Shown here: positions 6,639-26,586 of the stretch, piece after piece | Layout: each line of letters starts with the position of its first letter | How positions within the stretch are numbered: the first letter of the stretch is position 1 | Source of the DNA: Rickettsiales bacterium | GTDB lineage: Bacteria > Pseudomonadota > Alphaproteobacteria > Rickettsiales > UBA3002 | DNA: 50,918 bases | Assembly (NCBI GenBank): GCA_044341105.1 | Contig: JBIISI010000003.1 | Span: 1 to 50,918, forward strand | Reading direction: 5' to 3' | The notes under the pieces: generated by a model | Databases searched by the model: none | Told to the model about the DNA's origin: nothing | Seen by the model: the letters and a program-made list of their open reading frames with translations, nothing else | Translations under genes and position numbers: made by a program

Positions 6639-6721
6639 TTGGTTACTTCTGTAACCTTCCGCTCGTCGTAGTCTTTCTGCACCTTCGTACGACCATCACA
6701 GTCGTAATTAACGGAGGACTC

Positions 6722-6955: not shown

Positions 6956-6966
6956 GGGAGGCGCAC

Positions 6967-9525: not shown

Positions 9526-9552
9526 CCACTATCCTGTCGAGGTGGCTGAAGC

Positions 9553-9780: not shown

Positions 9781-9790
9781 ACCCCGCTGT

Positions 9791-9837
9791 GGGTCCTTCC
9801 CCAGAAGTTGAGCCCCGTGGGACGCGCGGAGCCCCGG
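9791..9837 (+). other. Putative cos packaging site (cosQ/cosN-like)
   Basis: GGGTCCT (lambda cosQ sequence) at 9791-9797, then a GC-rich tract gtgggacgcgcggagccccgg whose core lies about 21-23 nt downstream. Confidence 0.4.
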
Positions 9838-9970
9838 TGAAAGGCAGTTGTCATAAATTGCCTATTACACATGAGGTTGCCAATTCCTGCTTTCGCAATG
9901 AGTGGATTGGCAGGTGGCGGGTTTTTGACTATGGTGCAGCCAATGTTGACTGACGGGGGAGCCAAGGTTG

Positions 9971-11296: not shown

Positions 11297-12801
11297 GCCG
11301 CCTTCAACAGCTGCTGGTACGGGTCCATATGGCCAAAATAGCGCTTGGTCCGTGGGCGCGTCTGAAGCAAAGCGCACGTAATTCGGAACGCACGCAGGCA
11401 GCATTGCTGCAACGTATCCTGCACGCCAACCGCACCACGCAGTTCGGTCAAACACATCAGTTCGCTTCGCTTGGCGATACCGCAGCCTACCGTGAAGCCG
11501 TCCCCATCCATGATTATGAAGCGTTGCGCCCTTTCATCGACCGCCAGATGCAACATGGCGAACACGCGCTAACGGTAGCGCCAGTATGCCATTATTTGCT
11601 GACCAGCGGCACGACCGGCGAGCCTAAGCGTATCCCACTAACCGAAGATGCGATGCGACATCTGCGCGATTGCCAGCGGCTAGCAGCCTACAGCCATTTC
11701 CGCGAAGCCCCGTTGCTATTCTCCGGCAAGCTACTCTCTATCACCGGCGCAGGCACGGAAGGGCAGATGCCCAACGACACCCCTTATGGCTGCCTATCCG
11801 GCGTACTGTTCGATGCCATGACCCGCTTCATGAAACGCCGCGCCATCCCCTCAGCTGCTATCGGACTGGAATATCGCTACGAAGACATCGCCCGCGAGGC
11901 TGCGGCAGCACCCGATATCACCGCTGCCATTACCGCCAACCCTTCCAGCTTCCTGCGCCTGAAAGAGATCATGCTGCGCGAAGGGCTGATACCGGCAGGG
12001 CGTTTACTCGGCGATCTGTGGCCCAACCTTCACGCCATCATCACATGGACACACGGTAACTGCGCCACCTACCTACCCGCATTGCAGCGTGAGTTCCCCA
12101 ACACTGCCATTCTGGAAGCAGGATATCTCGCCAGCGAAATCTATGGCACTATTCCCGTAGGTGGCGGGCGCTGCGTTCCCAGCCTTGAGCATACCTTTTT
12201 TGAGTTCATCGCGGTCGATGCATGGGAGAGTGGAAGCGGGGAAACCCAACTGCTGCACACGCTGGAGCAAGGCCACCGCTATTACGTCATCACCACGACC
12301 GAGAGCGGCCTTTACCGCTATTTCATGCATGACATCGTGGAAGTGGACGGCATGTTCGAGAACACGCCCTGCCTACGTTTTGTGCAGAAGGGAAAGGGCG
12401 TGACCAGCCTCACCGGTGAGAAGCTTTACGAGAGCCAATTGCTGCACGCACTCAAAACCATTCGGGGAGATGACGCGAACGCGCCCTTCTTCCTCGCCGT
12501 CGCTCATAACGATCCAGCCCATTACCGGCTCTATATCGAGAGCGCGCACACTGCTCCTGACATGGCCACACAGCTGGATGATGCGCTGGGCGCACTAAAT
12601 ATCGAATACAAGGCAAAGCGCGATAGCGGGCGGCTGCATCCGCTTTCCATCGCCTTCCTGAGCAATGGCGCAGGCGATGCTTACCGCCAGCACTGTATTG
12701 CACAGGGCCAACGCGATGCCCAATGGAAGCTGGTGCGGCTACAATACGCCCACGAATGCCCCTTCGATTTCACTCCCTTCCTGCGTAAGGATGCGTCATG
12801 A
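11293..12801 (+). CDS. GH3-family acyl acid-amido synthetase
   Basis: AVPIHDYEALRPFI, LTSGTTGEPKRIP, YLASE, TTESGLYRYFMHD, GEKLYE; ATGA overlap. Confidence 0.9.
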   Translation: MSRLQQLLVRVHMAKIALGPWARLKQSARNSERTQAALLQRILHANRTTQFGQTHQFASLGDTAAYREAVPIHDYEALRPFIDRQMQHGEHALTVAPVCHYLLTSGTTGEPKRIPLTEDAMRHLRDCQRLAAYSHFREAPLLFSGKLLSITGAGTEGQMPNDTPYGCLSGVLFDAMTRFMKRRAIPSAAIGLEYRYEDIAREAAAAPDITAAITANPSSFLRLKEIMLREGLIPAGRLLGDLWPNLHAIITWTHGNCATYLPALQREFPNTAILEAGYLASEIYGTIPVGGGRCVPSLEHTFFEFIAVDAWESGSGETQLLHTLEQGHRYYVITTTESGLYRYFMHDIVEVDGMFENTPCLRFVQKGKGVTSLTGEKLYESQLLHALKTIRGDDANAPFFLAVAHNDPAHYRLYIESAHTAPDMATQLDDALGALNIEYKAKRDSGRLHPLSIAFLSNGAGDAYRQHCIAQGQRDAQWKLVRLQYAHECPFDFTPFLRKDAS

Positions 12802-13892
12802 CCCTGCAACTCACCATGGCCCCGTTGCATATCCCCTTTCGCGCAGCATTCCGGCATGCAGGCGCGGAACGCGCGGAAACAGAAACGGTTATCGTTACCG
12901 CCCGCCGTGGTGGATTGGAAGGCGTAGGCGAAGGGTGCCCGCGCAGCTATGTCAGCGGCGAGTCCATCGCCAGTGCGTTGGCATTTTTTGAACAACATCA
13001 CGCTACGATCTCGCAATTATCGACACTGGATAACGTTCGCCACTTTACCCAACAGTTCCAGCAAGAGATTGATGCAAACCCGGCAGCATGGTGCGCGGTG
13101 GAACTTGCCTTGCTCGACCTGCTTGGCAAGGAGCAGCAGCTTCCTATCGAGGCGTTGCTTTCCCTACCGCCGATAACCCAGCCATGCCACTATTCCGCCG
13201 TGCTCAGCGCGGGCTCGGCAGATGGCTTCGCCAAGCAACTGGCGCAATATCAGGCGCAGGGCTTTACGCAATATAAAATCAAACTCTCCGGCGACGCCGC
13301 GCTCGATGCCGCTTATGTTGCGCATCTACGTGCAGCAAACATCCCCCTATCGCACGTGCGGGCCGATGCCAATCGTCTCTGGCCTGATGCCATATCCGCC
13401 ATCGCTCACCTCGCTGCATTGGATTACCCATTCTGGGCGCTTGAAGACCCGCTACATGCCATTAATACGGACGCACTTACCGCCATCGTCCACGCCCGCG
13501 ATTGCCGCATCATCATCGATGAGCATTTCCTACGCCTCGACCAGTTCGCTACGCTTGCTCCCCATGGCCCATGGATCATCAATCTCCGCATCTCGAAAAT
13601 GGGTGGTTTGCTGCGCAGCATGGCGATCATCCAGCACGCGGCTAATGCAGGTATTCCACTCATCATCGGCGCGCAAGTTGGCGAAACCAGTATCCTCACG
13701 CGTGCCGCCATTTGTGTTGCACAGGCAGCTGGAACTTCCCTGCTAGCCCAAGAAGGCGCGTTCGGAAACTTACTACTAGCAAACGATCCTTGCGACCCGT
13801 CACTCACGTTCGGCCCGCGCGGCATTCTCTCACCGCATCCCGCTTTTAGTACGCCGGGAATGGGCATAAATTGGCAACCGGAGGCCCTATGA
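12798..13892 (+). CDS. Enolase-superfamily enzyme (MLE/epimerase-like subgroup)
   Basis: GVGEGCPR, ELALLDL, KIK, DAN, LEDP, IIDE, RISKMGG, GAQVGET; ATGA overlap. Confidence 0.88.
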   Translation: MTLQLTMAPLHIPFRAAFRHAGAERAETETVIVTARRGGLEGVGEGCPRSYVSGESIASALAFFEQHHATISQLSTLDNVRHFTQQFQQEIDANPAAWCAVELALLDLLGKEQQLPIEALLSLPPITQPCHYSAVLSAGSADGFAKQLAQYQAQGFTQYKIKLSGDAALDAAYVAHLRAANIPLSHVRADANRLWPDAISAIAHLAALDYPFWALEDPLHAINTDALTAIVHARDCRIIIDEHFLRLDQFATLAPHGPWIINLRISKMGGLLRSMAIIQHAANAGIPLIIGAQVGETSILTRAAICVAQAAGTSLLAQEGAFGNLLLANDPCDPSLTFGPRGILSPHPAFSTPGMGINWQPEAL

Positions 13893-14545
13893 AAAAGTTC
13901 AGTTTTCTTCACCACTCTTTCATTGCTATGGCGCTGCTCTTACTTGCTGCATGTGGTGATGCGCCGCGCGGCCCGGCATTTTCCTATGATGGCAAAGAGT
14001 TGGAGCTTAAGCTGGAAGGCGGCAAATATCTTACCTTCACCGATGGCCCCTGCGACCAAGGATTTGACGGATGCGTCATTCACCAATTCAGAGGCACCTT
14101 TGCCAGAGACCAGTTTTATTTCGTTCATCACCAATACTACGAGGGCGGCAAGTACATGCTGTATTCTTATAAAAGTGGCAACAGAACGATTATCTACGGC
14201 GAGCCACATCTTTCTCCGCAAGAGAACCTCATTGCAACGGCAATGGGTGATGAAATGAATGACGATGGCACTGGCATACGACTTTTTGAAATCGCTAACG
14301 GCGAAGCAAAAGAACTCTTCCATTATAAGCCAAACGGCTACGCCCTTTACCGCTTTGACAAATGGATCAACAATAATGAGGCCGCCATTGAACTATACAC
14401 GATGTGCAGAGATAATGGGCGCAACGATTCGCTCACCATGCCGGTGCACCTAAGAAACACCCCAACCGGTTGGCAACTAGACCAAGGCATCGGCGAAGCG
14501 TGCATTCAATCCACGCGGCAACCTAAGCCTAGCGTAAGCCCGTAA
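13889..14545 (+). CDS. Lipoprotein, unknown function
   Basis: MKKFSFLHHSFIAMALLLLAAC lipobox; GGAGG RBS; ATGA overlap with enolase stop. Confidence 0.75.
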   Translation: MKKFSFLHHSFIAMALLLLAACGDAPRGPAFSYDGKELELKLEGGKYLTFTDGPCDQGFDGCVIHQFRGTFARDQFYFVHHQYYEGGKYMLYSYKSGNRTIIYGEPHLSPQENLIATAMGDEMNDDGTGIRLFEIANGEAKELFHYKPNGYALYRFDKWINNNEAAIELYTMCRDNGRNDSLTMPVHLRNTPTGWQLDQGIGEACIQSTRQPKPSVSP

Positions 14546-15635
14546 GTAGCCCGGCGGGTGGGACAGCATCGGTGAGGGCCAACTTGCCGCGTGTAACAGA
14601 CGTTGCAACCAATGTTGGGCGTTTTGCACCCCAGCTTGCAGATTCCCTTAGCAGCACGATGCCATCGTCGGTCCTACAATCCGTCTGCCAGTAATCCGAC
14701 ACACCGACAGCCATGTTATAATCACGGCATGATTCGCCTAAAACCTCCCGCGTTTCTTCAGGCTTAATCAGTCTTCCAGCTTCTCGCCCAGTTCGTTCCA
14801 CGCGCTTTATCTCGGCGCGCTTAAACTGGCCTTCAGGCGTTCTAATCACCTGAATGGAAATGCCCTCACCGTCGTACGTTTGGATACGATGCCTCTGGTT
14901 TTGGGATTCGGTCATTTTGTATGCGCCGAACCGCTTGATATGCAGCACATCGGTAATGGCCTGCTCATTGGGCGAAGATTGCAGCAGCACTTCGTCATTT
15001 GGCCCCTCCTTGCTGTCGGACCATTCATCCCACGCATTGAGTTCCAGCAAATCCGTTGGCACCACCAAGTCTTCGCGTTTCACGGTGCTTCTATCGATGG
15101 AAATCGTCTCCGAATGTTGGAGTTCAGTAGTCGCGTTACTGAACACTTTCTGCCACAGCAGTACACCATCCGCCGTGAGGCAACTCTCCTGCCTAATACC
15201 GGTTGTTCCGTATGGAACTTCCCATACGCGGCACGACTCCCCTAATCCCGTCCCTACCCTCTCTGTCGGGTGGAATGTATATTGCTCACTCTCCGTAGGG
15301 CCAATGATAGAAAGATGGTCATAGCGACCATCGGGCAGCACCGCATAGCTGTAAGAAAGGCCGGTTTTAAGGTCTGCAATGACGATGCCTTTTTTATCGT
15401 TACGCGTAGTCTCCTCACGTATCCGGTCACCCGCCCGCATGACCTTAATCGTCGATTTCTCCAGCTTATTCACGACCGTGATAGTATATTCTCCCTTTAT
15501 AGGCGCTGCATATCGCGTCCAACCCGGCATGATAAATGTTGCAGAAGAGGCAGCAGCCTGTGCAGCACTGCTTATTAAAATGACAGCAGCTACCGTTGCA
15601 ATTTTACGCATACTAATTGTAGATATTGCGATCAT
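14529..15635 (-). CDS. Exported beta-rich protein with internal domain duplication
   Basis: Signal peptide (AAQA); GESCRVWE...SCLTADGVLL repeated as GESCRDYN...DCRTDDGIVLL. Confidence 0.75.
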   Translation of the reverse strand: MIAISTISMRKIATVAAVILISSAAQAAASSATFIMPGWTRYAAPIKGEYTITVVNKLEKSTIKVMRAGDRIREETTRNDKKGIVIADLKTGLSYSYAVLPDGRYDHLSIIGPTESEQYTFHPTERVGTGLGESCRVWEVPYGTTGIRQESCLTADGVLLWQKVFSNATTELQHSETISIDRSTVKREDLVVPTDLLELNAWDEWSDSKEGPNDEVLLQSSPNEQAITDVLHIKRFGAYKMTESQNQRHRIQTYDGEGISIQVIRTPEGQFKRAEIKRVERTGREAGRLIKPEETREVLGESCRDYNMAVGVSDYWQTDCRTDDGIVLLRESASWGAKRPTLVATSVTRGKLALTDAVPPAGLLTGLR

Positions 15636-16081
15636 TGCTTGCCCTTCTTAGGCCTACATTCTTGGTATAGCTTGGCATAGGCTACTACCGCAGCATCAGC
15701 AGAGCAGCGAGCTTCTTCGTCACCACGATACAGCTTACAATCCCAATGTTCGGGTAATCCGTAGAAACGGTCGCGATCTTCAGTGCTACCAGTCTTTCTT
15801 ATTATGGAATGTGGACGGCCACGCACGTACTCAAGTACACGCCCGGAAAGAAACTGCTGACCATTTTTCTCGATGATTTGGTCAACGCTGAAATCCGTAT
15901 GTTTGGGGAATACGACTACCTCCCCCGACTCGGCATATGGTTTCGTTACATCCGGCTCACTAAACACGCGCGCGTCATCAACATCGGAGGAGCAGCTAAG
16001 ATGGTAATTACCCTCTACTGCCGCGCTTGCAGCTACAGAAAACCCCAAGACACAAGCTATAACGATCCCCCACAACTTCAT
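15632..16081 (-). CDS. Small exported Cys-containing protein
   Basis: MKLWGIVIACVLGFSVAASA signal peptide from ATG 16081. Confidence 0.7.
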   Translation of the reverse strand: MKLWGIVIACVLGFSVAASAAVEGNYHLSCSSDVDDARVFSEPDVTKPYAESGEVVVFPKHTDFSVDQIIEKNGQQFLSGRVLEYVRGRPHSIIRKTGSTEDRDRFYGLPEHWDCKLYRGDEEARCSADAAVVAYAKLYQECRPKKGKQ

Positions 16082-16604
16082 CACTTTTCTCCCTGCATGC
16101 CTGCAAATCGCGGTTGCAGGTAGTTCTTCCATGCTTGCGCCGCTTCGGAATCATTCATGCTCATGCAGTAGAGCCCTACACTGCGCACACGTATTTCGAG
16201 CGTGCCTTCATCAATCCGCTCAAAACGACCGCCATGACATTCGGCGGCAGGCTTGAGTAATGATCGATCTCTACTATCGCATCTTCCTCATCGTACTCGG
16301 TAATCTTCCCGGTCCAGTCATAAGCTAGCAGTTGATACTGCTTATACATCTGAGCGCATTTCGCGTCTTCTACACGCTGCGGATAGCCTGTGCAGTGCTG
16401 CCATTCTGGCGTGGATAGCTGCTGGTACAAATCCTTTACAGCTGCACGTGCGACTGATGCCACCTGCGCATTGGTTAGCGCCGGATCAATCGGCATCGTC
16501 GTGGCTTTAGAAGAAATCAACGGCGTAGGCAGACAGCAGGCGCTACACAAAAATAATAAAGAGAGGCTTGTGATACGCAGCATCACCTTAACGGCATCTC
16601 GCAT
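16081..16604 (-). pseudogene. Lipoprotein gene interrupted by a frameshift near 16260
   Basis: Lipobox LFLCSAC; another frame continues LLKPAAECHGGRFERIDEGTLEIRVRSVGLYC...GEK and stops in a TGATG overlap with the next gene. Confidence 0.55.
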
Positions 16605-16605
16605 C

Positions 16606-17010
16606 CTACGGCTCCTGCGCTTCGATAAATTTCTCGGATGTGTTCGATCCAAATCCATGGAGGTAAACGCTGGCCTTTGCCTGTACCCCGATACGGCCTT
16701 GTTGCTCTATAACCTCCAATGGACAAACATCGTGCGGCGATTGCGCAACATATACTTTATCGCCCAAAGCCAGCTTCACACGGCGCTTTCCCTTATCTTC
16801 CGCGATAGGGCATTGGTCAGAATTAGTCTTATTGTTGAGCCTGAAACAGCTGCCTTGCCAATTTTCGATAAAGTGGATTTCTATACCATCTGGAACGGCT
16901 TCAACCTTCTCTATCCAACATATGTTCCCCGCCCATACGGTTGCAGGAAAGAGGCCGAACGCAATAGTATATCCAATACGGTGCCAGATGCTAATCACTG
17001 ATGGCTCCAC
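16606..17010 (-). CDS. Small exported Cys-containing protein
   Basis: Signal-like TIAFGLFPATVWA followed by GNICW; 4 Cys; overlaps upstream stop. Confidence 0.6.
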   Translation of the reverse strand: MEPSVISIWHRIGYTIAFGLFPATVWAGNICWIEKVEAVPDGIEIHFIENWQGSCFRLNNKTNSDQCPIAEDKGKRRVKLALGDKVYVAQSPHDVCPLEVIEQQGRIGVQAKASVYLHGFGSNTSEKFIEAQEP

Positions 17011-17549
17011 AAATAAACGGTTATGGCATTTTCGGCGCTAATATCGCGCACGCAGCGAAATTGATCTTCTATCCCTTGCAACTGTACGAGGTCGGCGCTC
17101 CGATAGCCCCAACGGGTGGTAACATAAGCGCATTCCTGCGCCCCTTTCTTTTGCAGCGAGCCCAACGTCGTTTGCAGTGCATCACGAATTCTTTTGTCAT
17201 CGGTACGCTGTGCGGTTTGTTTCGTTAGCTTTTTTGCCTGTTCTTTATACAGCTCGTCCCACCAGATGGATTCACGCTCCATACAATTTCTACTGTGCGA
17301 ACCAACGGCAATATCGGCCAGCGCATTATCGTATGCGGACACGTCGCTAATACACGCCTTTGTGAATTTGCCGATGCAAGTTTGGTAGAGGGTGTATTTA
17401 TCATCCGCCGATGCAAGGCAATAATCCAAGAACTGCTTTCTTACCGGGTCAGCGGCATGGGCGATCCCTGCCATCCCGATAATCGCCCAACACATCATCA
17501 GCAAAGCTAGGTTCTTTGTGAGCATCGGAATCTTTTTTGTCGCTACCAT
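16995..17549 (-). CDS. Exported protein resembling LprI (DUF1311) lysozyme inhibitors
   Basis: Signal peptide AHA; CIG..T..C ... C..RE..WWD pattern, helical, multiple Cys. Confidence 0.55.
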   Translation of the reverse strand: MVATKKIPMLTKNLALLMMCWAIIGMAGIAHAADPVRKQFLDYCLASADDKYTLYQTCIGKFTKACISDVSAYDNALADIAVGSHSRNCMERESIWWDELYKEQAKKLTKQTAQRTDDKRIRDALQTTLGSLQKKGAQECAYVTTRWGYRSADLVQLQGIEDQFRCVRDISAENAITVYLWSHQ

Positions 17550-17558
17550 ACACTCACA

Positions 17559-18322
17559 CTAAGACAGAGGTTTCTTTGGAGTTCGCGCATATTTATCTGC
17601 CGTCTCTGGCCGTAATTGCAACCCCACCATTTTTTCATTCTCGAAAACATACGGACATACGGGCGCTTTGTAGAACTGCTCAAAGATTTCTTCTGCCACG
17701 TCAATTTGCTCGTCCGTCATACGCTTTTCGAGTTCTTCCTGTTCGGCACGTGTACCGAACATCTTGATCGGCACCATCGACGCATGGACATGCGCCAAAA
17801 TTACATTCGGTTCGACCAACGCCCGCTCCTCAGCGGTGATATCGGGAGATGGTAACCCACCATACAGTGCTGCCAGATAATGAGAGGAAAGTATTGGGCA
17901 CGATCACACGCCATACGGTGCATCCAATAAAGCGATTTAGCGTAATCCTGCTTAAACCCATCGCGCCATTTCATTTTTGGCGGCGGCCCATTCGGTAAGG
18001 TGTGTTGAGGCGGTATCTTTTGCGCATACTGCTGCGCCAACTCAATTTGGGCAAAGGGCTCACCCGCCTCTGCGGCTTTGAATAAGTAAATATTTGATTC
18101 TTCCTCGGTCATGCCGCCTTTGTCGCGGATGATACCGAAATGGTCCCCTAAAAGTCTCATCGCGGATATATCCCCGCTATCCGCTGCTGCTTTAATAGTC
18201 TCAAAACTATCTTTATAGCTCACCGTCGATGGCGGAAATGGCTTAAAGCGCGGATTTGGTTTGGGCGAGCATGCTGCCATTGCTAGGCAGCAGACAAGTA
18301 GCATTGCATTAACAACCCGCAT
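17559..18322 (-). pseudogene. Sel1-repeat lipoprotein split by a frameshift near 17885
   Basis: Lipobox AMAAC; Sel1 motifs AADSGDISAMRLLG, KAAEAGEPFAQIELA, QDYAKSLYW; second frame continues SHYLAALYGG...EKRMTDEQIDVAEE. Confidence 0.65.
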
Positions 18323-18439
18323 AAGAACCCTCCGCGCGCATCATACATTTTTTCTTACGCGGCGCAGCTACAGATTGCGGTTATCGAATAATATACATGC
18401 CGGTCGCGAGAAAATACGCTAATGCATTAGTGTTAACAC

Positions 18440-20188
18440 ATGGGAGTCAGCATGGTGCAGAGCACCGAGATTGTAGCTAATGCCACAGCAGGAACGCTGC
18501 ACCAACTCATCCTCGATGAGTATGAGCGCGGCATCGATGAGGGTGATGCAGCGTTTGTTGCCCTTACGGTTGAGCTGCATAACGCTGGAGCTATTGACCT
18601 TCTAGCGGCGCTGAGCCCCACTGCATTGGCAGACGCGCAGGGGTTCCAGTTTTTTACCCTTCAACAATTCTATTGCGCGGCTATTCCGAAAATCGAGGCT
18701 GAGCCGAAGCCTTTAATGACTGTGGTTTCAACCCTAGTGAAAGCGGCTGGAAATGACATGGCTTCTTACATGCCCAACGCTGCGTACCGGGATTGGTGCT
18801 CACTAAAACCAGAGCGTCCTGACCTCGTTATGAATTTAATCACCGCTGGAGACGCAGAAGCGATGGAATACCTGTCCCTGACATTAGAGGGTGGCGCTGT
18901 TTTCGATAAACGTAGATTCATGGAACAGGCCATCACTTACTTGCGAGATGCGCCAGAGTTACGCCAAGCCGCATTAACCGCGCTCGCCCGAATCGATAGT
19001 AGCGGCAATGTTGATCTTGCTCATACAGCATTAGCACTGATGGCGGAACACGTCACTGAGCAAGCTGACGATATGCTGCGCACCCATGTCTTAGCGGCGA
19101 CTCTTGGCCTATATTCGCGATCACCCGCAGAGATGCATGATGAAGCCTTGGCCCTAATTACACAGACCATCCAGCATCGCGGCGACGGTGTTCTACACCA
19201 CTGCGCGTCTGCATTGTTTGAGCGTAAAAATTTAACTGATGCGATGGTGGAATTACTCATAACAACACTAGAAGACGTGAATCCTGCTCACCTCGGCACG
19301 ATTAATTCGCTCGATGTTGCGCTGTCAGAACTTATAAAAGCGGGCAAGGGTGCGCGTGTTATTGGTTACTTAGAGAAAGTTTTTCGTGCCCACCCTGATG
19401 CGCTCAGCTTCAAGCAATTCGATAGTGTGGGTCACACGTTAACGCGGGAACAACAACCGCTCGCCACCGATACAACCGTGCGGTGGCTGATGAGTGGCGA
19501 TGCAAACCTTGCCTCCCATATCTCTGACCTTATGAGTGCGTCAACGCAGCAACCTACGATATTCACTGTTGATATCGCGCCCTACGCTTTCAGTGATGTT
19601 GAGGCCATTTTCCTTGCCCGTAAAGCCATTGGCTGGTTCTTCTTCCACCCTATCACCGCAGCATCACTCATTGTCTGCGTATTGCGCACTGTAAACGGCG
19701 ATACAGCTGAAACCATTGGCGATCTTCTTTTTGATCCGCTGCTGCTTAGTTATTCGGGAGAACTACGGAACTACCTGCAAGAGCGAACTAACGATCCAAG
19801 TGAAACTGCTGCGCCTCAAATCCAGCAAGCCATTGATAAGTTGGATGCATATCTAAACAATCTGCGTGCTGCCGGATTTATTGCCGAACTCGAACCTTCC
19901 GAACGTGAACGATTGATCGAACGGCAGAAGAATACTGAGCGCATGCGTCAAATTCAAAAACAGGCAGAGCAAAGCTCGGTGTTACTGTCACTCGTATCCA
20001 AGTCCATCATTCTCCATGGCAATGGCTCTATTGGGTATCGCTACGATATGGATGGAAAGCCCCACCGCCATAGCATGAAAATGGGTACTTATAGCTCCGT
20101 GTGGGAAGCGCCACGCTTAGAGGCTATCGACCCGTTCGGGCTTGATATGCAATTACGCGTTTTCCGCGCTGAGAGGCTCGTCGCATGA
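18440..20188 (+). CDS. Large alpha-helical (HEAT/ARM-like) hypothetical protein
   Basis: 582 aa Leu/Ala-rich amphipathic helices; ATGA overlap with the next gene. Confidence 0.8.
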   Translation: MGVSMVQSTEIVANATAGTLHQLILDEYERGIDEGDAAFVALTVELHNAGAIDLLAALSPTALADAQGFQFFTLQQFYCAAIPKIEAEPKPLMTVVSTLVKAAGNDMASYMPNAAYRDWCSLKPERPDLVMNLITAGDAEAMEYLSLTLEGGAVFDKRRFMEQAITYLRDAPELRQAALTALARIDSSGNVDLAHTALALMAEHVTEQADDMLRTHVLAATLGLYSRSPAEMHDEALALITQTIQHRGDGVLHHCASALFERKNLTDAMVELLITTLEDVNPAHLGTINSLDVALSELIKAGKGARVIGYLEKVFRAHPDALSFKQFDSVGHTLTREQQPLATDTTVRWLMSGDANLASHISDLMSASTQQPTIFTVDIAPYAFSDVEAIFLARKAIGWFFFHPITAASLIVCVLRTVNGDTAETIGDLLFDPLLLSYSGELRNYLQERTNDPSETAAPQIQQAIDKLDAYLNNLRAAGFIAELEPSERERLIERQKNTERMRQIQKQAEQSSVLLSLVSKSIILHGNGSIGYRYDMDGKPHRHSMKMGTYSSVWEAPRLEAIDPFGLDMQLRVFRAERLVA

Positions 20189-21939
20189 AGCTGGTCATCA
20201 GGGAATATATAGCAGCCCTTAAAGAGCGGGATGAGCTTGATGCCATGCTCCCCAATCTCCTTACTGAGATGGGTTTCACGGTTTATTCGCGCCCTAGCCG
20301 GGGCACCCGCCAATATGGTGTTGATATTGCCGCAGTAGGTCAAACTGCCGATGGGGAGCGCAAAGTGTATTTGTTCTCGGTAAAGCAAGGTGACCTGAAT
20401 CGCCAAGACTGGGACGGCACACCTCAGGCCCTGCGCTCATCGTTGAATGAAATCCGCGATGTTTACATCCCAACGCATATTCCCGCCGAGTATCGGAATC
20501 TTAAGGTTGTTATTTGTTTGGTGTTTGGCGGTGATATCAAAGAGCCGGTTCAACTGGAAGTACGTGGATACATCAACACCAATACTACAGCCAACGTCGC
20601 ATATGAAGAGTGGAATGGCGACCGCCTTGCAGATTTAGTTCTAAGCGGCATTTTGCGCGAAGAAATGTTCACTGGTCCAATGCGTGCGCATCTTCGTAAA
20701 GCCGCCGCAATGGTGGAAGAACCTGATATTGCATACACACATTTCCGCAGTTTGGTTGACGCTATCATCAAGCGCCCTACAAAAAAGAAGGGCGAGGATA
20801 TCTCCAAAGTGCGCGAAATAAACATGTGCCTTTGGGTGCTTTTTACTTGGGCGCGTGAAGCGAATAATGTTGAAGCACCCTACCGCGCAGGCGAATACGC
20901 AATCTTACGTGCGTGGGAATTGCTGAAGAATTTAATCGACGGCAATGGCCGTACAGCTACGGATGCAGGGATTGCCTTCAATGAACTTGTGCAACTTCAT
21001 TTCACTATATGGGATACGCTAGCTGAAAAGATTTTGCCGCATGTAGATAAACGCCACGCCATCTCAGCGGCTGTTGGCGCATTCTCCAGCTTGGATATCA
21101 ACCTAAAAACACATGACATTTTAGGGCGCATTGCCATGCGGGGCTTGTGGCATGCGTGGGCCAAAGGCCAAAGCAACCTGCCAGAACCGCTAGAAGGTTC
21201 TGAGGGCGATTTAAGCACCATTACGATGCAGTTATATCAGCTGATTAACAATAACCCCGCATTGCATGCACCGATTTGTGATGAGCAGGCTATCGACATC
21301 GCTCTGGCATTAATGCTGCTTGGGGTGCATGGCGGGCTCTCCAGCACCATCACTTCATGGTTGGATGCGCTCGTGGACCGGGCCCATTTCAACTACCGTA
21401 GGCATGGCAAATACCCAACGTGCAAGACTTCGTACTGGGATTTGGTCGAGCATCCGGCAGAAAAGACCGATGAGTACCGCAAAGAGGTAACCGGGGGCAG
21501 CATTCTCTATCCGATGCTCGCGTTGTGGGCAGGTGCCTATGGCGGAAACGAAGCACTCAGCGATCTGGCAGAGTTCAAAAAAGAGCAGTTAGCACATTGT
21601 AATTTCCAACTATGGTTCCCCGATAATGACAGTGAGGCAGGGTTGTATCTTGGAAGCGACCGGCATGGGGATATGTTATCCGATATTCCCGCAGATGCCG
21701 CAGGCACCAAAACACGGGAATATATAGAAGCAGAATGCACCCTGAATACTCATTTCGGGCAATTATCGGCGATTCGACTCGGGCATTGGCCTATCGTATT
21801 AATGGCCTGCCGACATTACCGTTTGCCTGTGCCGCCACAAATATGGATGGGGCTCCTACCGGCGCTGCCCGCTGCCACGGACAACCCCGCGACCAACAGC
21901 ACGCCCAACACCCAAGAAAGTGCGACGTTGCAGGACTGA
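20185..21939 (+). CDS. Protein with N-terminal Mrr-like PD-(D/E)xK endonuclease domain and helical C-terminus
   Basis: ELDAMLPNLLTEMGF...RQYGVDIAAVG...YLFSVKQG, EEWNGDRLA. Confidence 0.75.
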   Translation: MKLVIREYIAALKERDELDAMLPNLLTEMGFTVYSRPSRGTRQYGVDIAAVGQTADGERKVYLFSVKQGDLNRQDWDGTPQALRSSLNEIRDVYIPTHIPAEYRNLKVVICLVFGGDIKEPVQLEVRGYINTNTTANVAYEEWNGDRLADLVLSGILREEMFTGPMRAHLRKAAAMVEEPDIAYTHFRSLVDAIIKRPTKKKGEDISKVREINMCLWVLFTWAREANNVEAPYRAGEYAILRAWELLKNLIDGNGRTATDAGIAFNELVQLHFTIWDTLAEKILPHVDKRHAISAAVGAFSSLDINLKTHDILGRIAMRGLWHAWAKGQSNLPEPLEGSEGDLSTITMQLYQLINNNPALHAPICDEQAIDIALALMLLGVHGGLSSTITSWLDALVDRAHFNYRRHGKYPTCKTSYWDLVEHPAEKTDEYRKEVTGGSILYPMLALWAGAYGGNEALSDLAEFKKEQLAHCNFQLWFPDNDSEAGLYLGSDRHGDMLSDIPADAAGTKTREYIEAECTLNTHFGQLSAIRLGHWPIVLMACRHYRLPVPPQIWMGLLPALPAATDNPATNSTPNTQESATLQD

Positions 21940-21973
21940 AGGCTGTTCTACAACTCGGAAACATCCCTTTTTC

Positions 21974-22002
21974 TTTACTTTTTTAACGGACTTCAGTAGC
22001 TT
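21974..22002 (+). promoter_or_regulatory. Sigma70-like promoter
   Basis: TTTACT-N17-TAGCTT just upstream of the hairpin at 22009. Confidence 0.45.
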
Positions 22003-22008
22003 GATATC

Positions 22009-22158
22009 AGGTGCTGAACACACCTTAGATTTAGCGTTTTGCCGACACGACAGTCGGGACTCCTACCGTATGGTCGGGAGCCCTTCTGCCATACAACAGC
22101 CTTCGGGTGAAAGCAGTCGGGCACGACTAAATCCGTGTGTTCAAACTCCCGATCACCA
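22009..22158 (+). ncRNA. C4/CI-like antisense RNA / Ash-type leader
   Basis: Hairpin AGGTG-CTGAACA-CACCT; 22015-22036 is complementary to 22124-22143; ggtcgggag pairs with ctcccgatc; peptide MVGSPSAIQQPSGE from 22070. Confidence 0.5.
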
Positions 22159-22210
22159 TCCCATACTAGCGAGGGATGCTGGTCCGTTTAACGACGAAAC
22201 CGGGGATGCT

Positions 22211-22672
22211 ATGAACCAACGAATCTTGTTACCGCTTCTAAGTGCAACGCTTCTCGCAGCATGCGCAACAGAACCACCGTTTGAGGGTACACCCACCGTT
22301 CACATCTGGGCCACTCCAACACAAGTAGCCAGTCACTTAGCACAACACTGCATCCAAGGCAGAGGGCGTATCGTTGCGCAGAGCAATTACCACTTTGTGT
22401 GTGCTGTACCCATGGATGGGTCGATGAACAGCCTCGTCTTACGGGCACTGGTAACAGAGCACTATTCGTCCAACCCAGAAATTAATGTCCAATCGAGTTG
22501 GGCAGCGCAAGGTAACGGTGTTCGAGTATCCTCCATTTCGTGGATGGAGCACCAAAATGCATTCGGCAAAACGACCAAGAACTACCTAGATCAACCTGCG
22601 AGCAAACGGAGCCTGCAAGCTGGCCTTGAAAAGATGAAGGCCACTATAGAAGCGCAGAACGCAGCGCGATAG
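22211..22672 (+). CDS. Lipoprotein, unknown function
   Basis: MNQRILLPLLSATLLAAC lipobox; GGGGA RBS. Confidence 0.75.
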   Translation: MNQRILLPLLSATLLAACATEPPFEGTPTVHIWATPTQVASHLAQHCIQGRGRIVAQSNYHFVCAVPMDGSMNSLVLRALVTEHYSSNPEINVQSSWAAQGNGVRVSSISWMEHQNAFGKTTKNYLDQPASKRSLQAGLEKMKATIEAQNAAR

Positions 22673-22684
22673 GCAGGAGGCAAT

Positions 22685-23062
22685 ATGGCTCGAATAAAAA
22701 TACGCGCTGGCGACTTTATCACAATATCTCCCAGCCATTCATACGGTGGCAGAAATTTTCACTTAGCGACTGAGGCACGAGAATGGAAGCTCAAGAACAC
22801 CGAGACCATCCCTGTGACCGAGTTAGAATATGTGGAACTGGCGAGTGAAGAGAATGTGAAGAAGCTGGGCGGCACCATCGGCTGGGGTGCTGCTGGAGCA
22901 GCCCTGCTAGGGCCAGCAGGCTTACTCGCAGGTTTATTGCTCGGTGGTAAAAAGAAAGAAGTGACATTCATCGCAAAATTCAGGGATGGCCGTAAATTCA
23001 TAGGAACAACAGACCCGAAAACATGGGCAGACATTCAAGGCGGCGCGCTGCATTTGCTCTAA
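22685..23062 (+). CDS. Small protein with glycine-zipper membrane segment
   Basis: GGTIGWGAAGAALLGPAGLLAGLLLGG; AGGAGG RBS. Confidence 0.75.
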   Translation: MARIKIRAGDFITISPSHSYGGRNFHLATEAREWKLKNTETIPVTELEYVELASEENVKKLGGTIGWGAAGAALLGPAGLLAGLLLGGKKKEVTFIAKFRDGRKFIGTTDPKTWADIQGGALHLL

Positions 23063-23071
23063 GTATTAGCG

Positions 23072-23338
23072 TTATTTCGCTTCGTGGGCTTTCTTTTCTT
23101 GCCGCACGCGCCGATCATTCTCGCGTATTACGCGCAGCGTACGATTCTGCTCGGCGCGCTGGATATCATGGCGGCGCTGCCGCGTTTCAATTCGCTGTTG
23201 AAGATAGTCGGGCTCATTTTCGATGTGAACCGTAACAGACTGTGCCCCGCCCCAGTTCTCGTCGCCCCATGCATACGCTTGCCCTGCCATGAGGAGCATG
23301 CCGATTACGCAGTAAACAATATTACGCATGTGCTGCAC
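23072..23338 (-). CDS. Small exported hypothetical protein
   Basis: MRNIVYCVIGMLLMAGQAYA signal peptide; overlaps integrase stop. Confidence 0.55.
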   Translation of the reverse strand: MQHMRNIVYCVIGMLLMAGQAYAWGDENWGGAQSVTVHIENEPDYLQQRIETRQRRHDIQRAEQNRTLRVIRENDRRVRQEKKAHEAK

Positions 23339-24530
23339 CTTTCACTGCTTGTTCAACGTAATCGCCCCACCACTGCATCATCTCACGGCGTTCTGGGAGG
23401 TACTCCGCGTGGTTATAGGCGCTGCGGACTTGATCGCGTTCGGCGTGGGCTAGTTGGCGTTCGATGACATCGGGGCGGTGGTTATGTTCATTCAGGATGG
23501 TGGATGCAGTGGCGCGGAAGCCGTGGGCGGTGGCTTTGCCTTTATAGCCCATGATGTCGAGGGCTTTAAGGAAGGTGTTTTCGCTCATCATCTTGCGCGG
23601 GTTTTGCTGGCTGGGGAAGATGTAGCCAGAATAGCTATCGGCGGTGAGTTCATGCAGTTGTTTGAGGACGGCGATGCTTTGCGTGGAGAGCGGGACGATA
23701 TGCTGCTCTTTCATCTTCATGCGCTCGGCAGGAATGCGCCACTGGGCCTTATCCCAGTCGATCTCGGACCAATGCGCGCCGCGAATCTCGCCACTACGCA
23801 CGAAGGTCAGCACGAGAAACTCGAAGGCAAGCCGGGTGAGCGTGGTGCCGTTATAGTCTTGCTCGTAGCGGCTCAGCTTTTTCAGGAAGCCCGGAAGGTC
23901 TTTCTCGCGTAGGTGAGCGTAGTTCTCACTAATGACGGGTGCAAGCGCACCGCGCAAGTCTTGGCAGATGTCGCGTTCGGCACGGCCAGTGGCGATGGCG
24001 TAGCGGAATACCTGCGAGCAAACCTGCATGATGCGATGCGCGACATCGTGCGCGCCGCGCTTTTCAACTTTACGGACCGCAGCTAGCAACTCCGGCGCAG
24101 TAATGGCTTTAATGGGTCGCCCACCGAGCAGCGGGAAGATATTTGCCTCTAGCCGCTTGAGGATGGTCGCCGCATGCTTAACCTTCCATGTATGGTAACG
24201 CTGCTCGTGCCATTCGCGGGCGATACTCTCGAAACTATTCTCGTAATGTGTGAGGCGCTCGATCTTCTCCAACCGCTTTACTTCTACAGGATTGTGCCCC
24301 TCGGCTAACTGTTTTTTAGCAAGGCGGGCCTTCTCGCGGGCTTCTTGCAAAGACACATTCGGGTAAGTACCGAAGGAAATACGCTTCTCATCGCCGTTGA
24401 AATAGTATTTCAGCCGCCAGTATTTGCCGCCGCGCGCGGTGACTTCAAGGTATAGCCCATGGCCATCCGATAGTTTTCGCGTGATGGTGGTACAGGTGGC
24501 GTTCTTACACGCCGTGTTGGTCAGCTTCAT
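23322..24530 (-). CDS. P4-type tyrosine integrase with arm-DNA-binding domain
   Basis: LSDGHGLYL..GKYWRLKY, GTYPNVSLQEAR; catalytic R (VRSGE), HGFR, QLAH, YNHAEY. Confidence 0.97.
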   Translation of the reverse strand: MKLTNTACKNATCTTITRKLSDGHGLYLEVTARGGKYWRLKYYFNGDEKRISFGTYPNVSLQEAREKARLAKKQLAEGHNPVEVKRLEKIERLTHYENSFESIAREWHEQRYHTWKVKHAATILKRLEANIFPLLGGRPIKAITAPELLAAVRKVEKRGAHDVAHRIMQVCSQVFRYAIATGRAERDICQDLRGALAPVISENYAHLREKDLPGFLKKLSRYEQDYNGTTLTRLAFEFLVLTFVRSGEIRGAHWSEIDWDKAQWRIPAERMKMKEQHIVPLSTQSIAVLKQLHELTADSYSGYIFPSQQNPRKMMSENTFLKALDIMGYKGKATAHGFRATASTILNEHNHRPDVIERQLAHAERDQVRSAYNHAEYLPERREMMQWWGDYVEQAVKGAAHA

Positions 24531-24556
24531 TGGGGGTAACTTCCCGGTTCAAAATG

Positions 24557-24575
24557 ATGCCCCTAAATGTGCCCC
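24557..24575 (+). repeat. Integrase arm-type site (right)
   Basis: atgcccctaaatgtgcccc, matches 5969-5987; inverted tgggggtaa at 24531. Confidence 0.7.
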
Positions 24576-24685
24576 CTTTTGGTTTGGATGCCATTGGAGC
24601 CACTCAGAGTCTATCAGAGAAATATACCAGAAAATCAGCCGTTTTTGAAGGATTATTGTAGAAAACGGGAGTCCCTCAGAAGGGA

Positions 24686-24705
24686 AAATGGTGACCTCTA
24701 CGGGA
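24686..24705. repeat. att site overlapping tRNA-Glu 3' end
   Basis: Repeat of 5890-5908. Confidence 0.9.
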
Positions 24706-24763
24706 ATCGAACCCGTGTTACCTCCGTGAAAGGGAGGTGTCCTAACCGCTAGACGAAGAGGCC
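24689..24763 (-). tRNA. tRNA-Glu (TTC)
   Basis: GGCCTCTTCGTCTAGCGGTTAGGACACCTCCCTTTCACGGAGGTAACACGGGTTCGATTCCCGTAGAGGTCACCA: cloverleaf, T-loop, CCA. Confidence 0.97.
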
Positions 24764-24831
24764 ATCGGCGGGCGTTGCCCGAAAACAGGGGGCCTTAACA
24801 CCATAGCCGGACGCGAAGGTCAAGCGCTTTG

Positions 24832-26586
24832 TTACATCACCCGCGCCGCGTCCTCGATGATGAATTGCGGGCTTTCCTGCCCCTGCCAGCGATTCAACGT
24901 CAATTCGCCCGCCAGATGCAGGCTGGGCGCGGTGGCAAGCCACGCGCCCAATTGGCTATCGCCCACGTTAAACGCCACGGCATTCAGCCGGGCATTCCCT
25001 GCCTCATCGCATAGCACAAGTCGCAAATGCTTTTCTTTCATGACTTTGCGATGGACGATGCGTGCCGCGCGGATGCCAAAACGCGGGCTGGGGTTGCCAA
25101 GGCCGTAGGGCGCGGCGCGGGCCAGATCCTCGATCAGCCCGGCCTGCGCGGATTGGCAGCTGATCCAGCCATCGAGCTTGCGCACGCGCGATTCGGCATA
25201 GGCGGTGACGGCGAGGCCGAGGCGCTCGCACAGGAAGGTGTGGAAGGCGCTGAGCTGCGCGGCATCGAGGCTAAACCCCGCCGCCATGGCGTGGCCACCG
25301 CCCTGGGTGAGCAGGCCGGTGGTGACGCCCGCATGGACCGCTGCGCCCATATCGGCACCGGGCACGGAGCGCGCCGAGCCTTTGCCCACCCCGCCCTCGA
25401 GCGCGATAACGGCGGCGGGCCGCGCGAATTTCTCTTTCAACCGCCCGGCGACGATGCCGATGACCCCCGGGTGCCAGCCCTCGCCCGCCACGACGATGGC
25501 GGAGGCGTTGGCCTGCGTGGCAGCCTGCGCCAGCGCGGCTTCCAGCACCCCAACCTCGATCGCCTGCCGCTCGGCATTGTGCTGGTGCAGGCGGGCGGCG
25601 AGCACGGCGATTTCCGCATCGTCGGCGCTGGTGAGCAGGCGCACGCCGAGATTCGATTCGCCCACGCGGCCACCGGCATTGATGCGCGGGCCATAGATGA
25701 AGCCAAGATGGTAGGCGCTGGGCAGCTCGTGCAGGTTCGCCACGTCGGCCAGCGCGGCAAGGCCACGCTGCTGGCGGGTGGCCAGCTGCTTCAGCCCCTG
25801 CGCCACAAACGCGCGGTTGAGACCGGTGAGCGGCATCACGTCGCAGACGGTGCCGAGCGCAACGAGGTCGAGCAGGGCGAGCAGGCTTGGCGCGGGCCGC
25901 GCAGCGCGGAAGAAGCCGCGATCATGCAGCACGCGGTTGAGCGCAACGAGCGCAAGGAAGGTGACGCCGACCGCCGCGAGGTTGGTGTAGGGCGAGGTTT
26001 CATCGACACGATTGGGGTTGACGATGGCGAAGGCATCCGGCAGGTCGCCGTCGCTTAAATGGTGGTCGAGCACGATCACATCGACCCCCTTCGCGCGGGC
26101 GTGCTGGATGGGCGCATGCGCCAGCGTGCCGCAATCGACCGTAACGATGAGCGTGGCACCCTGCGCGATGAGTTGGTCGAACGCGGCAGTGCTGGGGCCA
26201 TAACCTTCCTTCATGCGGTCGGGAATGTAGGGAATGAACCGCACGCCCAGCGGCGCTAGGTAGTGCCACAACAGCGCGGTCGAGGTCGCACCGTCGACAT
26301 CGTAATCGCCGAAGACGGCGATGGTTTCGCCAGCTTGCACCGCATCGGCCAGCCGGGCGCTGGCGGCGGCCATACCCTGCAAATGCAGCGGGTCGGGCAG
26401 TTGCTCGCGCAACGTGGGCATAAGGAATTGCGGCACCGCATCGAGCGCCACGCCGCGCCCGGCCAGCACTTCAGCCAGCGCCTCGGGAATGCCGTGCTGC
26501 TGCGCCATGGCGAGCGCCAGCCGCGCATCGGCGGCGCGTGGCACCCAGCCAAGGCCCGAAGCAGTGGAGGACGGAGGAATCTGCAT
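24832..26586 (-). CDS. recJ: ssDNA-specific exonuclease RecJ
   Basis: GDYDVDG, TVDCG, DHH, GTVCDV, GPRINAGGR, GGHAMAAG. Confidence 0.97.
   Translation of the reverse strand: MQIPPSSTASGLGWVPRAADARLALAMAQQHGIPEALAEVLAGRGVALDAVPQFLMPTLREQLPDPLHLQGMAAASARLADAVQAGETIAVFGDYDVDGATSTALLWHYLAPLGVRFIPYIPDRMKEGYGPSTAAFDQLIAQGATLIVTVDCGTLAHAPIQHARAKGVDVIVLDHHLSDGDLPDAFAIVNPNRVDETSPYTNLAAVGVTFLALVALNRVLHDRGFFRAARPAPSLLALLDLVALGTVCDVMPLTGLNRAFVAQGLKQLATRQQRGLAALADVANLHELPSAYHLGFIYGPRINAGGRVGESNLGVRLLTSADDAEIAVLAARLHQHNAERQAIEVGVLEAALAQAATQANASAIVVAGEGWHPGVIGIVAGRLKEKFARPAAVIALEGGVGKGSARSVPGADMGAAVHAGVTTGLLTQGGGHAMAAGFSLDAAQLSAFHTFLCERLGLAVTAYAESRVRKLDGWISCQSAQAGLIEDLARAAPYGLGNPSPRFGIRAARIVHRKVMKEKHLRLVLCDEAGNARLNAVAFNVGDSQLGAWLATAPSLHLAGELTLNRWQGQESPQFIIEDAARVM

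Follow-up and report, generated by a model that had tools for sequence, protein, structure and literature searches.

A divergent copy of the two-gene anti-phage system Olokun on an integrase-bearing island of a Rickettsiales bacterium

Two adjoining genes of a Rickettsiales bacterium (GenBank assembly GCA_044341105.1) very probably make up an intact copy of the Olokun anti-phage system, oloA-oloB, which is cargo on an island that was acquired horizontally, bears an integrase and sits at tRNA-Glu. They lie in contig JBIISI010000003.1, and the whole stretch analysed, 50,918 nucleotides in length, is called the window here. In the PADLOC scan, ORF1 matched OloA (PDLC03925) with an E-value of 2.9e-106 and 355.1 bits, residues 7-580 of 582 being aligned with positions 8-594 of 596 in the profile, and ORF2 matched OloB (PDLC03926) with an E-value of 3.8e-208 and 691.1 bits, residues 1-558 of 584 being aligned with positions 1-554 of 556. 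Since both proteins matched the models end to end, the pair is the named system Olokun, already described, and its novelty is gone. The original prediction, made from the letters alone, had called for a check against named systems, with Olokun and Aditi to be excluded; the search returned Olokun. Aditi was ruled out, as ORF1 matched only OloA and ORF2 only OloB at E ≤ 1, and no further PADLOC family was found for either ORF at that threshold. The predicted two-gene design against phages, in which a helical scaffold is paired with a PD-(D/E)xK nuclease on a tRNA-linked island, was borne out by PADLOC, fold matches and the biochemistry of homologues, but its novelty was not. Thus, annotation of the locus as Olokun is justified with confidence, and the locus is not a candidate new defence system. 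The features discussed below are as follows, with the source of each in brackets.

18440..20188, forward strand: oloA ORF of 582 aa, encoding a HEAT/armadillo (adaptin-like) alpha-solenoid protein (PADLOC, Pfam, AF2, Foldseek)
19850..20149, forward strand: OloA C-terminal region, residues 467-566 of the 578-aa protein, predicted clamp on the OloB helical domain (interface model, conservation)
20185..20188, forward strand: ATGA start/stop overlap coupling oloA and oloB (sequence, related loci)
20185..21939, forward strand: oloB, 584 aa, nuclease subunit (PADLOC, AF2)
20185..20667, forward strand: OloB N-terminal PD-(D/E)xK-fold nuclease domain, residues 1-161, with D47 and S65-x-K67 (VIA-align, AF2, conservation)
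20692..21864, forward strand: OloB helical domain, about residues 170-560, predicted docking site of OloA (AF2 helices 164-557, interface model)
23322..24530, reverse strand: tyrosine integrase of the island (Pfam Arm-DNA-bind_3, Phage_int_M and Phage_integrase; PHROGs phrog_1 integrase, E 5.4e-63)
24689..24763, reverse strand: tRNA-Glu(UUC), integration site of the island (ARAGORN, GC shift)

The two coupled genes of about 580 aa noticed at the outset are indeed ORFs of 582 and 584 aa, and their overlap can be read directly at the junction gtcgcATGAagc, where the ATG of OloB (20185-20187) overlaps the TGA of OloA (20186-20188). Translation of OloA probably starts at the ATG at position 18452 rather than at 18440, giving a protein of 578 aa; a GGGAG lies at 18442-18446, 5 nt upstream of that ATG, the database copy of OloA has 578 aa, and most relatives among the matches listed have 578-579 aa. 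In 78 of 80 related loci, OloA immediately precedes OloB; the two exceptions are L070, in which OloB begins at the contig edge, and L024. A two-gene arrangement that recurs this often is more than chance. Among 77 same-strand pairs, 65 had the ATGA junction and 70 had a 4-nt start/stop overlap. A third conserved gene accompanying the pair was sought in the 80 related loci and not found, and a promoter/terminator scan gave two promoter-like sites, fewer than the mean of 6.8 in shuffled sequences, with none upstream of oloA.

The window copy is a divergent Olokun orthologue and nothing different in kind. Its identity to most copies in other genomes was about 45-55% for OloB and about 33-36% for OloA, and of 7999 candidates that were scored, 1706 protein clusters were related to OloB at E ≤ 0.001. 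General family resources were uninformative: Pfam and NCBIfam gave no above-threshold family for OloA or OloB, PHROGs gave no match for either, and a sequence search of the PDB returned no match for OloA and, as the best for OloB, Aca2 at E 0.39 over 55 residues, which is not meaningful.

The AF2 model of OloB (pLDDT 84.9, pTM 0.77) consists of an alpha/beta domain at residues 1-161 followed by helices at 164-557, in agreement with the long helical tail anticipated for the second gene. When the alpha/beta domain was compared with known structures by VIA-align, the best match was FokI (2fok_B; Z 11.1, rmsd 3.7, 146 residues aligned, model 1..161 against chain 396..564), followed by MspJI (4f0p_B, Z 9.5), AF1548 (1y88, Z 9.0) and EcoT38I (Z 8.1), and at a lower level by Upx (9wuf, Z 7.4), NucS (2vld, Z 7.4) and LmuA (9nxx, Z 7.2). 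The nuclease fold was clear only by this route, as a Foldseek search of the full OloB model against the PDB had no match at E ≤ 0.001 and MspJI as its best at E 0.064. The helical domain, C-terminal to the nuclease domain in the window copy, gave generic helical-repeat matches only (14-3-3 and TPR, Z about 8), below the level that the tool treats as meaningful for helical folds, and these were therefore not read as homology.

The motif noted at first in ORF2, E...QYGVDI...SVK with Ser at the D/E position, is present in full as E28, Q43-Y-G-V-D47-I and S65-V-K67. In the AF2 model, D47 lies just before the strand at 48-53, while S65 and K67 are at the end of the strand at 59-67. We counted the conservation of these residues over 80 sequences, namely the window copy and 79 locus ORFs. 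D47 was kept in 79 with one gap, K67 in all 80, and position 28 was E in 59 and Q in 19, with two gaps. Position 65 was S in 73 sequences, T in 6 and C in 1, and acidic in none; since it is never D or E, catalysis would depend on another acidic partner. E120, which begins the helix after the strand at 107-114, was near-invariant (76 of 80). The description of the motif as Mrr-like did not hold up at the sequence level, because OloB had no Pfam family at E ≤ 1, Mrr_cat included, and no NCBIfam family, and its best folds are FokI and MspJI; the likeness is that of the general PD-(D/E)xK fold.

OloA was modelled by AF2 as an all-alpha solenoid with helices over residues 1-473 (pLDDT 82.3), which confirms the all-helical character predicted for the first gene. 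Its fold matches in Foldseek were PP2A PR65alpha, importin-alpha, beta-catenin, CAND1 and AP-3, with probabilities of about 1.0, E-values from 1e-4 to 7e-3 and low TM-scores, and sub-threshold Pfam matches were to Adaptin_N, HEAT and HEAT_2. Judged from sequence comparison, OloA diverges faster than OloB: similarity to the window copy was lower for OloA in all 73 pairs (median 32.5% versus 48.4%). The majority-residue frequency was 0.39 for OloA residues 1-400 and 0.52 for 401-578, compared with 0.71 in the nuclease domain of OloB. Within OloA, conservation is highest at residues 467-566, with 0.57 versus 0.42 for the rest of the protein; this region overlaps those in which the monomer model had a pLDDT below 50 (475-487, 489-491, 501-530 and 537-559).

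A complex prediction for OloA and OloB scored 0.77 (median of three runs) against 0.00 for the best control, and of 80 solved complexes, 58 attained the mark behind this score, as did 2 of 110 mismatched pairs. At least 88% of the contacts were common to the runs, and the pLDDT of the partners was at least 83. The predicted interface comprised residues 467, 470-471, 473-487, 489-490, 493, 553, 557-563 and 566 of OloA, and 178-181, 227-230, 233, 279-308, 312, 357-362 and 399-422 of OloB. As a prediction, this supports binding of OloA to OloB in the window copy.

The reference list of PMC10121019 attributes Olokun to Millman et al. (2022, Cell Host Microbe 30:1556); the words Olokun, OloA and adaptin are absent from the bioRxiv version of that work (10.1101/2022.05.11.491447). 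Passages of a preprint on PfOlokun (Ragucci et al. 2025, bioRxiv 10.1101/2025.07.10.664194) describe a 2:2 OloA-OloB complex of about 278 kDa, in which the adaptin-like OloA is bound to the helical domain of OloB and two OloB nuclease domains stand side by side. According to the same passages, PfOlokun degraded genomic DNA of T7, of SPO1 and of an ssDNA phage given in print as 'SEC 17', nicked plasmid and did not cut E. coli DNA, with activity in vitro seen only at 1 uM. Homologues of Olokun have been validated as phage defence, as stated in parts of that preprint and of PMC10121019.

For the window copy, OloB would be the effector, with an N-terminal PD-(D/E)xK nuclease whose non-canonical site is D47...(S/T)65-x-K67, followed by the helical domain, and OloA would be its HEAT/armadillo (adaptin-like) solenoid partner. 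The acid missing at position 65 may be supplied from elsewhere in the fold, for which E14, E17, D19, E120 and D146 are candidates. We infer that the conserved C-terminal tail of OloA could become ordered only upon binding the helical domain of OloB, and that the fast-evolving N-terminal solenoid could be a surface that recognises a phage cue or sets target choice. Judged by divergence rates, OloA may be the sensor, and the sensor-gated nuclease of the original prediction stays a conjecture. Put together, these steps give a tentative division of roles, which we regard as possible: OloA residues ~1-400 would recognise the phage, the tail at ~467-566, disordered on its own, would fold onto the OloB helical domain and transmit the signal, and OloB would cut by a Cfr10I-type relocated-acid D...(S/T)xK site. 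If this is true, an exchange of OloA solenoids could redirect phage specificity, and the trigger would be a protein of the phage rather than a feature of DNA. The (S/T)xK site, the faster divergence of OloA and the OloA tail at the predicted interface are testable handles on the trigger of Olokun.

It is less likely, in our judgement, that Olokun acts by abortive infection, in which a triggered OloAB complex would degrade host as well as phage DNA and kill or arrest the cell instead of destroying phage DNA selectively. Such a mode would be in keeping with a nuclease site that has no obvious attached sequence-recognition domain and with the lack of a methylase or other self-marking partner. [quoted passage not shown] Against this, the same passages report that the purified homologous complex left E. 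coli genomic DNA uncut and only nicked plasmid (10.1101/2025.07.10.664194). The absence of a methylase and of an ATPase had been remarked on in the original prediction, and it was upheld here: neither OloA nor OloB contains a Walker A motif, and no cognate methyltransferase was found among 26 flanking ORFs by Pfam or 25 by PADLOC, which also led us to reject a restriction-modification system.

The setting of the pair speaks for its acquisition together with the island, and it also bears on two further readings, both of which we consider much less probable than the assignment to an intact anti-phage Olokun system. GC content is about 50% in the island (about 0.50-0.56) and rises to 0.61-0.70 beyond tRNA-Glu, and the contig begins inside the low-GC region. 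A second copy or direct repeat of the tRNA-Glu 3' end was found neither within positions 1..25000 nor in the 127-contig assembly. Besides the integrase, the island encodes a primase-helicase (Pfam, PHROGs); no other satellite hallmark was identified with these resources, and satellite status is not established. The host genome is small, about 2 Mb, and OloB was found in none of the 60 relatives searched, which leaves the window genome as the sole carrier among 61. Within the class, the OloB family occurred in 3 of 401 genomes, counting the one that holds the window. An intact divergent Olokun on a tRNA-Glu island, absent from these relatives in its OloB, fits defence genes that travel as mobile cargo. 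That the pair might instead serve the island itself, for example as a module for addiction or for shutting out rival elements or plasmids that enter the cell, appears very improbable. The presence of the pair together with integrase and primase-helicase would be consistent with such a service, as would a related integrase within 10 kb of the pair in 6 of 80 related loci and the nicking of plasmid DNA by the homologous complex. However, the six small genes that flank the pair in the window, and likewise the primase, had homologues in 0 of the 80 loci, the homologues of Olokun are validated as phage defence, and of 16 related loci sampled, 11 had other defence genes close by (non-Olokun PADLOC matches at E ≤ 1e-10 within 7 kb), a raw count without a background rate. 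Two of these 11 loci are weak or ambiguous: L005 has a 60-residue HamB-like stretch, and L063 a reverse transcriptase with homing-endonuclease-type matches. In the window itself, no recognised defence gene was found by PADLOC among 25 neighbouring ORFs, and the only matches at E ≤ 0.001 were two of a response regulator at the level of its receiver domain. This lack of neighbouring defence genes would agree with a decayed or inactive remnant of Olokun, as would a small genome that is the only carrier among the 61 searched, and decay does occur in the family, since in L005, the closest genome locus, OloA is split into two ORFs. We nevertheless hold a remnant to be hardly credible: both ORFs are full length against the PADLOC profiles, the 4-nt overlap that couples them is undisturbed, the models of both proteins have a pLDDT of 82-85, and all columns invariant in the 28-sequence alignments are held by the window copy, although so by construction.

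The window pair resembles described Olokun in matching both PADLOC models, in having two genes with oloA first, and in the 4-nt coupling seen in related loci. It also shares an adaptin/HEAT-like OloA and a PD-(D/E)xK OloB, and its OloA is predicted to dock on the OloB helical domain, as described in parts of the PfOlokun work. What sets it apart is its origin in a genome of about 2 Mb with no OloB match in the relatives searched.

Of other nucleases, the cleavage domains of FokI (type IIS) and MspJI (modification-dependent) are the closest structural matches to OloB 1-161, although sequence identity is merely 8-10% and OloB falls in no Pfam family. OloB differs from both in having no DNA-recognition or SRA-like domain, and has instead a helical domain predicted to be bound by a separate solenoid protein. 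The nuclease domains of FokI and MspJI act as dimers, in parallel to the two OloB nuclease domains reported to lie next to each other in Olokun, and in MspJI, too, the (D/E) position is not acidic, the site being D...QxK. In the Cfr10I-type active site, PD...SxK...E, a Ser occupies the (D/E) position within the tripeptide S-V-K, and the acidic role falls to a Glu of a later helix. OloB is alike in this Ser and in S-V-K, and has in addition the near-invariant E120 at the start of a helix; Cfr10I was not among the VIA-align fold matches listed for OloB.

Among defence systems, Hachiman, Gabija, AbpAB, Shedu/PD-T4-8, Upx and Lamassu (LmuA) likewise have a PD-(D/E)xK-type or related nuclease effector that is controlled in a protein complex, and the nuclease domains of Upx and LmuA are themselves among the fold matches of OloB given above. 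In those systems the partner is usually an NTPase or helicase, whereas in Olokun it is OloA, a HEAT-type solenoid with no Walker A motif.

The anti-phage system of the original prediction consisted of two co-directional genes joined by an ATGA, and this arrangement was read directly in the sequence:

18440..20188, + strand, oloA (ORF1), 582 aa as an ORF
20185..21939, + strand, oloB (ORF2), 584 aa

The junction sequence, ...gtcgcATGAagc..., places the oloB start across the oloA stop with an overlap of 4 nt. For oloA, the sequence makes the ATG at 18452 a more likely start than 18440; GGGAG at 18442-18446 lies 5 nt 5′ of that ATG, and the database copy of OloA has 578 aa, with relatives listed mostly at 578-579 aa. 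The PADLOC search proposed with the prediction matched ORF1 to OloA (PDLC03925, E 2.9e-106, residues 7-580 against profile positions 8-594 of 596) and ORF2 to OloB (PDLC03926, E 3.8e-208, residues 1-558 against 1-554 of 556), and no other PADLOC family was found for either ORF at E <= 1. Since these models cover both proteins almost end to end, the pair is Olokun, a real and intact feature, rightly described beforehand, and an ordinary example of a published system; Olokun was among the systems to be excluded, and a match to it removes novelty. Other databases were less informative: in Pfam, OloA had only sub-threshold Adaptin_N and HEAT matches and OloB had none, NCBIfam gave nothing useful for both proteins, and PHROGs gave no match. 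Olokun is attributed to Millman et al. 2022 (Cell Host Microbe) in the reference list of PMC10121019; the name is absent from the bioRxiv version of that paper.

With one genome scanned per species, 255 loci proved to encode an OloB relative, and the 80 kept span Alpha-, Beta- and Gammaproteobacteria, Acidobacteriota, Cyanobacteria, Nitrospirota, Chloroflexota and others. In 78 of the 80, an OloA relative lies directly 5′ of OloB on the same strand, the exceptions being L070, whose OloB starts right at the edge of its contig, and L024. Of 77 same-strand pairs, 65 have ATGA at the junction, and in 70 the stop and start overlap by 4 nt in the OloB frame. Neither the six small genes flanking the window pair nor the island primase-helicase had a homolog in any of the 80 loci. 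The conserved unit is thus exactly the oloA-oloB pair. In the closest genome locus, L005 (OloB 76% identical), OloA is in two ORFs, 8266-8868, which matches the N-terminal part of OloA, and 8961-10004, and looks like a disrupted copy. One OloB relative (L018:10001-12394, protein record P0095) is longer, at 797 aa, and continues at its C-terminus for ~200 residues past the usual ~590. Public records name several OloB homologs (P0058, P0065, P0071, P0091 and P0096) "chemotaxis protein", which finds no support here and looks like a propagated misannotation.

GC content is 0.44-0.59 from position 1 to ~24.6 kb and 0.57-0.70, mostly 0.61-0.70, in the flank beyond. The contig start falls within the low-GC region, and the following features belong to this region and its edge:

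6967..9525, primase-helicase of 852 aa (DUF5906; phrog_256, E 9.4e-85; phrog_9765, E 2e-76)
23322..24530, - strand, tyrosine integrase, adjoining tRNA-Glu(UUC)
24689..24763, - strand, tRNA-Glu(UUC), followed by recJ

The integrase next to a tRNA gene marks the region as an island, and the primase-helicase suggests a self-replicating integrative element; searches of the contig and of the assembly turned up no repeat of the tRNA-Glu 3′ end. OloB was found in none of 60 relatives searched, 46 of which were at least 90% complete with no more than 5% contamination (47 with the window's own genome), and a sample of 401 genomes from the class yielded the OloB family in 3, among them the window's own. 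Directly 3′ of oloB, two ORFs (21920..23062) have matches among phage families to which no function is assigned (phrog_3152, E 1.1e-7; phrog_20920 and phrog_12025, ~E 1e-9), and they are kept beside Olokun in none of the 80 related loci. On the 5′ side, 14529..18322 (- strand) holds seven consecutive small or medium ORFs of 86-368 aa, several with hydrophobic N-termini resembling signal or lipoprotein leaders when the translations were judged by eye; Pfam, PADLOC and NCBIfam recognised none of them, and a single one had a weak PHROG match. Several genes for envelope lipids lie in the low-GC region as well, at 480..4816:

480..1136, - strand, PmrA-like response regulator
1229..1975, - strand, CDP-alcohol phosphatidyltransferase
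1960..2670, - strand, phosphatidylserine decarboxylase
2839..4476, + strand, phosphoethanolamine-lipid A transferase (NF028537, 611.7 bits, cut-off 500)
4478..4816, + strand, diacylglycerol kinase

These form a lipid A modification module of the eptA-dgkA type on apparently acquired DNA; the transferase did not reach the cut-off of any MCR family model. A higher-GC block inside the island (9968..13892, 0.56-0.59) has genes for a fatty-acid hydroxylase and a GH3-family enzyme, OlsE-like and OlsH-like respectively but both below cut-off, and for an enolase-superfamily racemase or cycloisomerase. These genes are a hint of ornithine-lipid-type modification, and the block hints that the island is composite.

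Enrichment in defence islands had also been proposed as a check. In the window, none of 25 neighboring ORFs encodes a recognised defence protein. Among related loci, we sampled every third of the 46 with full flanks (16 loci, 186 neighboring ORFs within 7 kb), and 11 of the 16 had a non-Olokun PADLOC match at E <= 1e-10, weak or ambiguous in L005 and L063; L039, L045, L053, L058 and L084 had none. The matches include Avs3a, PD-Lambda-3, mad3, PDC-S36, AbiEi, RmrA, PDC-M01A/B, LmuB and TmtA, and also type I R-M parts or sets. This raw count is only suggestive of a defence neighborhood around related Olokun loci. Two reports describe Olokun as concentrated in genomic-island hotspots of Pseudomonas (PMC12629846) and in E. 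coli islands (PMC10121019).

The description of the first protein as all-helical held for residues 1-473, a confident alpha-solenoid in the AF2 model (pLDDT 82.3); residues 475-559 were mostly below pLDDT 50 in the monomer. Foldseek matched OloA to HEAT/armadillo proteins (PP2A PR65alpha, importin-alpha, beta-catenin, CAND1 and AP-3) with probability ~1.0 and E 1e-4 to 7e-3; the TM-scores were low, which is normal for solenoids, given their flexibility. Neither OloA nor OloB has a Walker A motif, and the claim of no ATPase therefore holds. The complex prediction that had been called for was run with full-length OloA and OloB 160-560, each with its own alignment, and scored 0.77 (median of three runs, 0.80, 0.77 and 0.77) against 0.00 for the best control; of 80 solved complexes, 58 reach the mark used, as do 2 of 110 mismatched pairs. 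Between runs, at least 88% of contacts were the same, with partner pLDDT of at least 83, and a sequence search of the PDB found no structure resembling the pair. The predicted interface comprises OloA 467-493 and 553-566 (numbered on the 578-aa protein) and OloB 178-181, 227-233, 279-312, 357-362 and 399-422. The monomer model leaves this OloA region disordered, and no other part of OloA is as conserved (majority-residue frequency 0.57 vs 0.42 for the rest). As a prediction, the model supports binding of OloA to the OloB helical domain.

In all 73 pairs compared, OloA was less similar to the window copy than its partner OloB (medians 32.5% vs 48.4%), and majority-residue frequency falls from the OloB nuclease domain (0.71) to OloA 401-578 (0.52) and OloA 1-400 (0.39). 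From this fast divergence, we infer that the variable OloA solenoid is likely the recognition surface. These comparative observations are leads on the Olokun mechanism, beyond a solenoid protein and a nuclease that act as a complex to degrade phage DNA, and do not settle it.

The OloB AF2 model (28-sequence alignment; pLDDT 84.9, pTM 0.77) has an alpha/beta domain at 1-161, then helices to ~557. With Foldseek alone, no PDB structure reached E <= 0.001, and MspJI came closest (E 0.064, probability 1.00). VIA-align, run on the Foldseek candidates, aligned OloB 1-161 with the following nuclease domains:

FokI cleavage domain (2fok_B, chain 396-564), Z 11.1, rmsd 3.7, 146 aligned
MspJI (4f0p_B), Z 9.5
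AF1548 (1y88), Z 9.0
EcoT38I (7edb_A), Z 8.1
Upx (9wuf), Z 7.4
NucS (2vld_B), Z 7.4
LmuA (9nxx_D), Z 7.2

The helical domain had generic matches only (Z ~8), under the tool's meaningful level for helical folds. All elements of the motif described for ORF2 (E28, Q43-Y-G-V-D47-I, S65-V-K67) are present. D47 immediately precedes strand 48-53, and S65/K67 lie at the end of strand 59-67; in this fold, the PD and (D/E)xK elements canonically occupy these places.

Residues of the OloB nuclease domain in 80 sequences:
E14, E17 and D19: each in 78
E28: E 59, Q 19, 2 gaps
D47: D 79, 1 gap
Position 65: S 73, T 6, C 1, acidic in none
K67: K in all 80
E120: 76
D146: D 78, E 2

Serine at the D/E position was thus rightly noted for OloB, and position 65 is non-acidic (S/T/C) throughout. 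The MspJI site is D...QxK, and that of Cfr10I is PD...SVK, with the Glu supplied by a later helix; both are precedents for a non-acidic residue here.

The homologous PfOlokun has been characterised biochemically, and a preprint describes a ~278 kDa 2:2 OloA-OloB complex, in which adaptin-like OloA touches the OloB helical domain and the two PD-(D/E)xK domains lie next to each other (Ragucci et al. 2025, bioRxiv 10.1101/2025.07.10.664194). According to the same preprint, PfOlokun, active at 1 uM only, degraded genomic DNA of T7, SPO1 and an ssDNA phage printed as "SEC 17", nicked plasmid and left E. coli genomic DNA uncut; nuclease-site mutants lost the OloAB complex in purification, and each operon in the panel gave protection from one phage or more. 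The two descriptions differ in the helical domain of OloB, which is called N-terminal there, whereas in the model of the window ortholog it lies C-terminal to an N-terminal nuclease domain.
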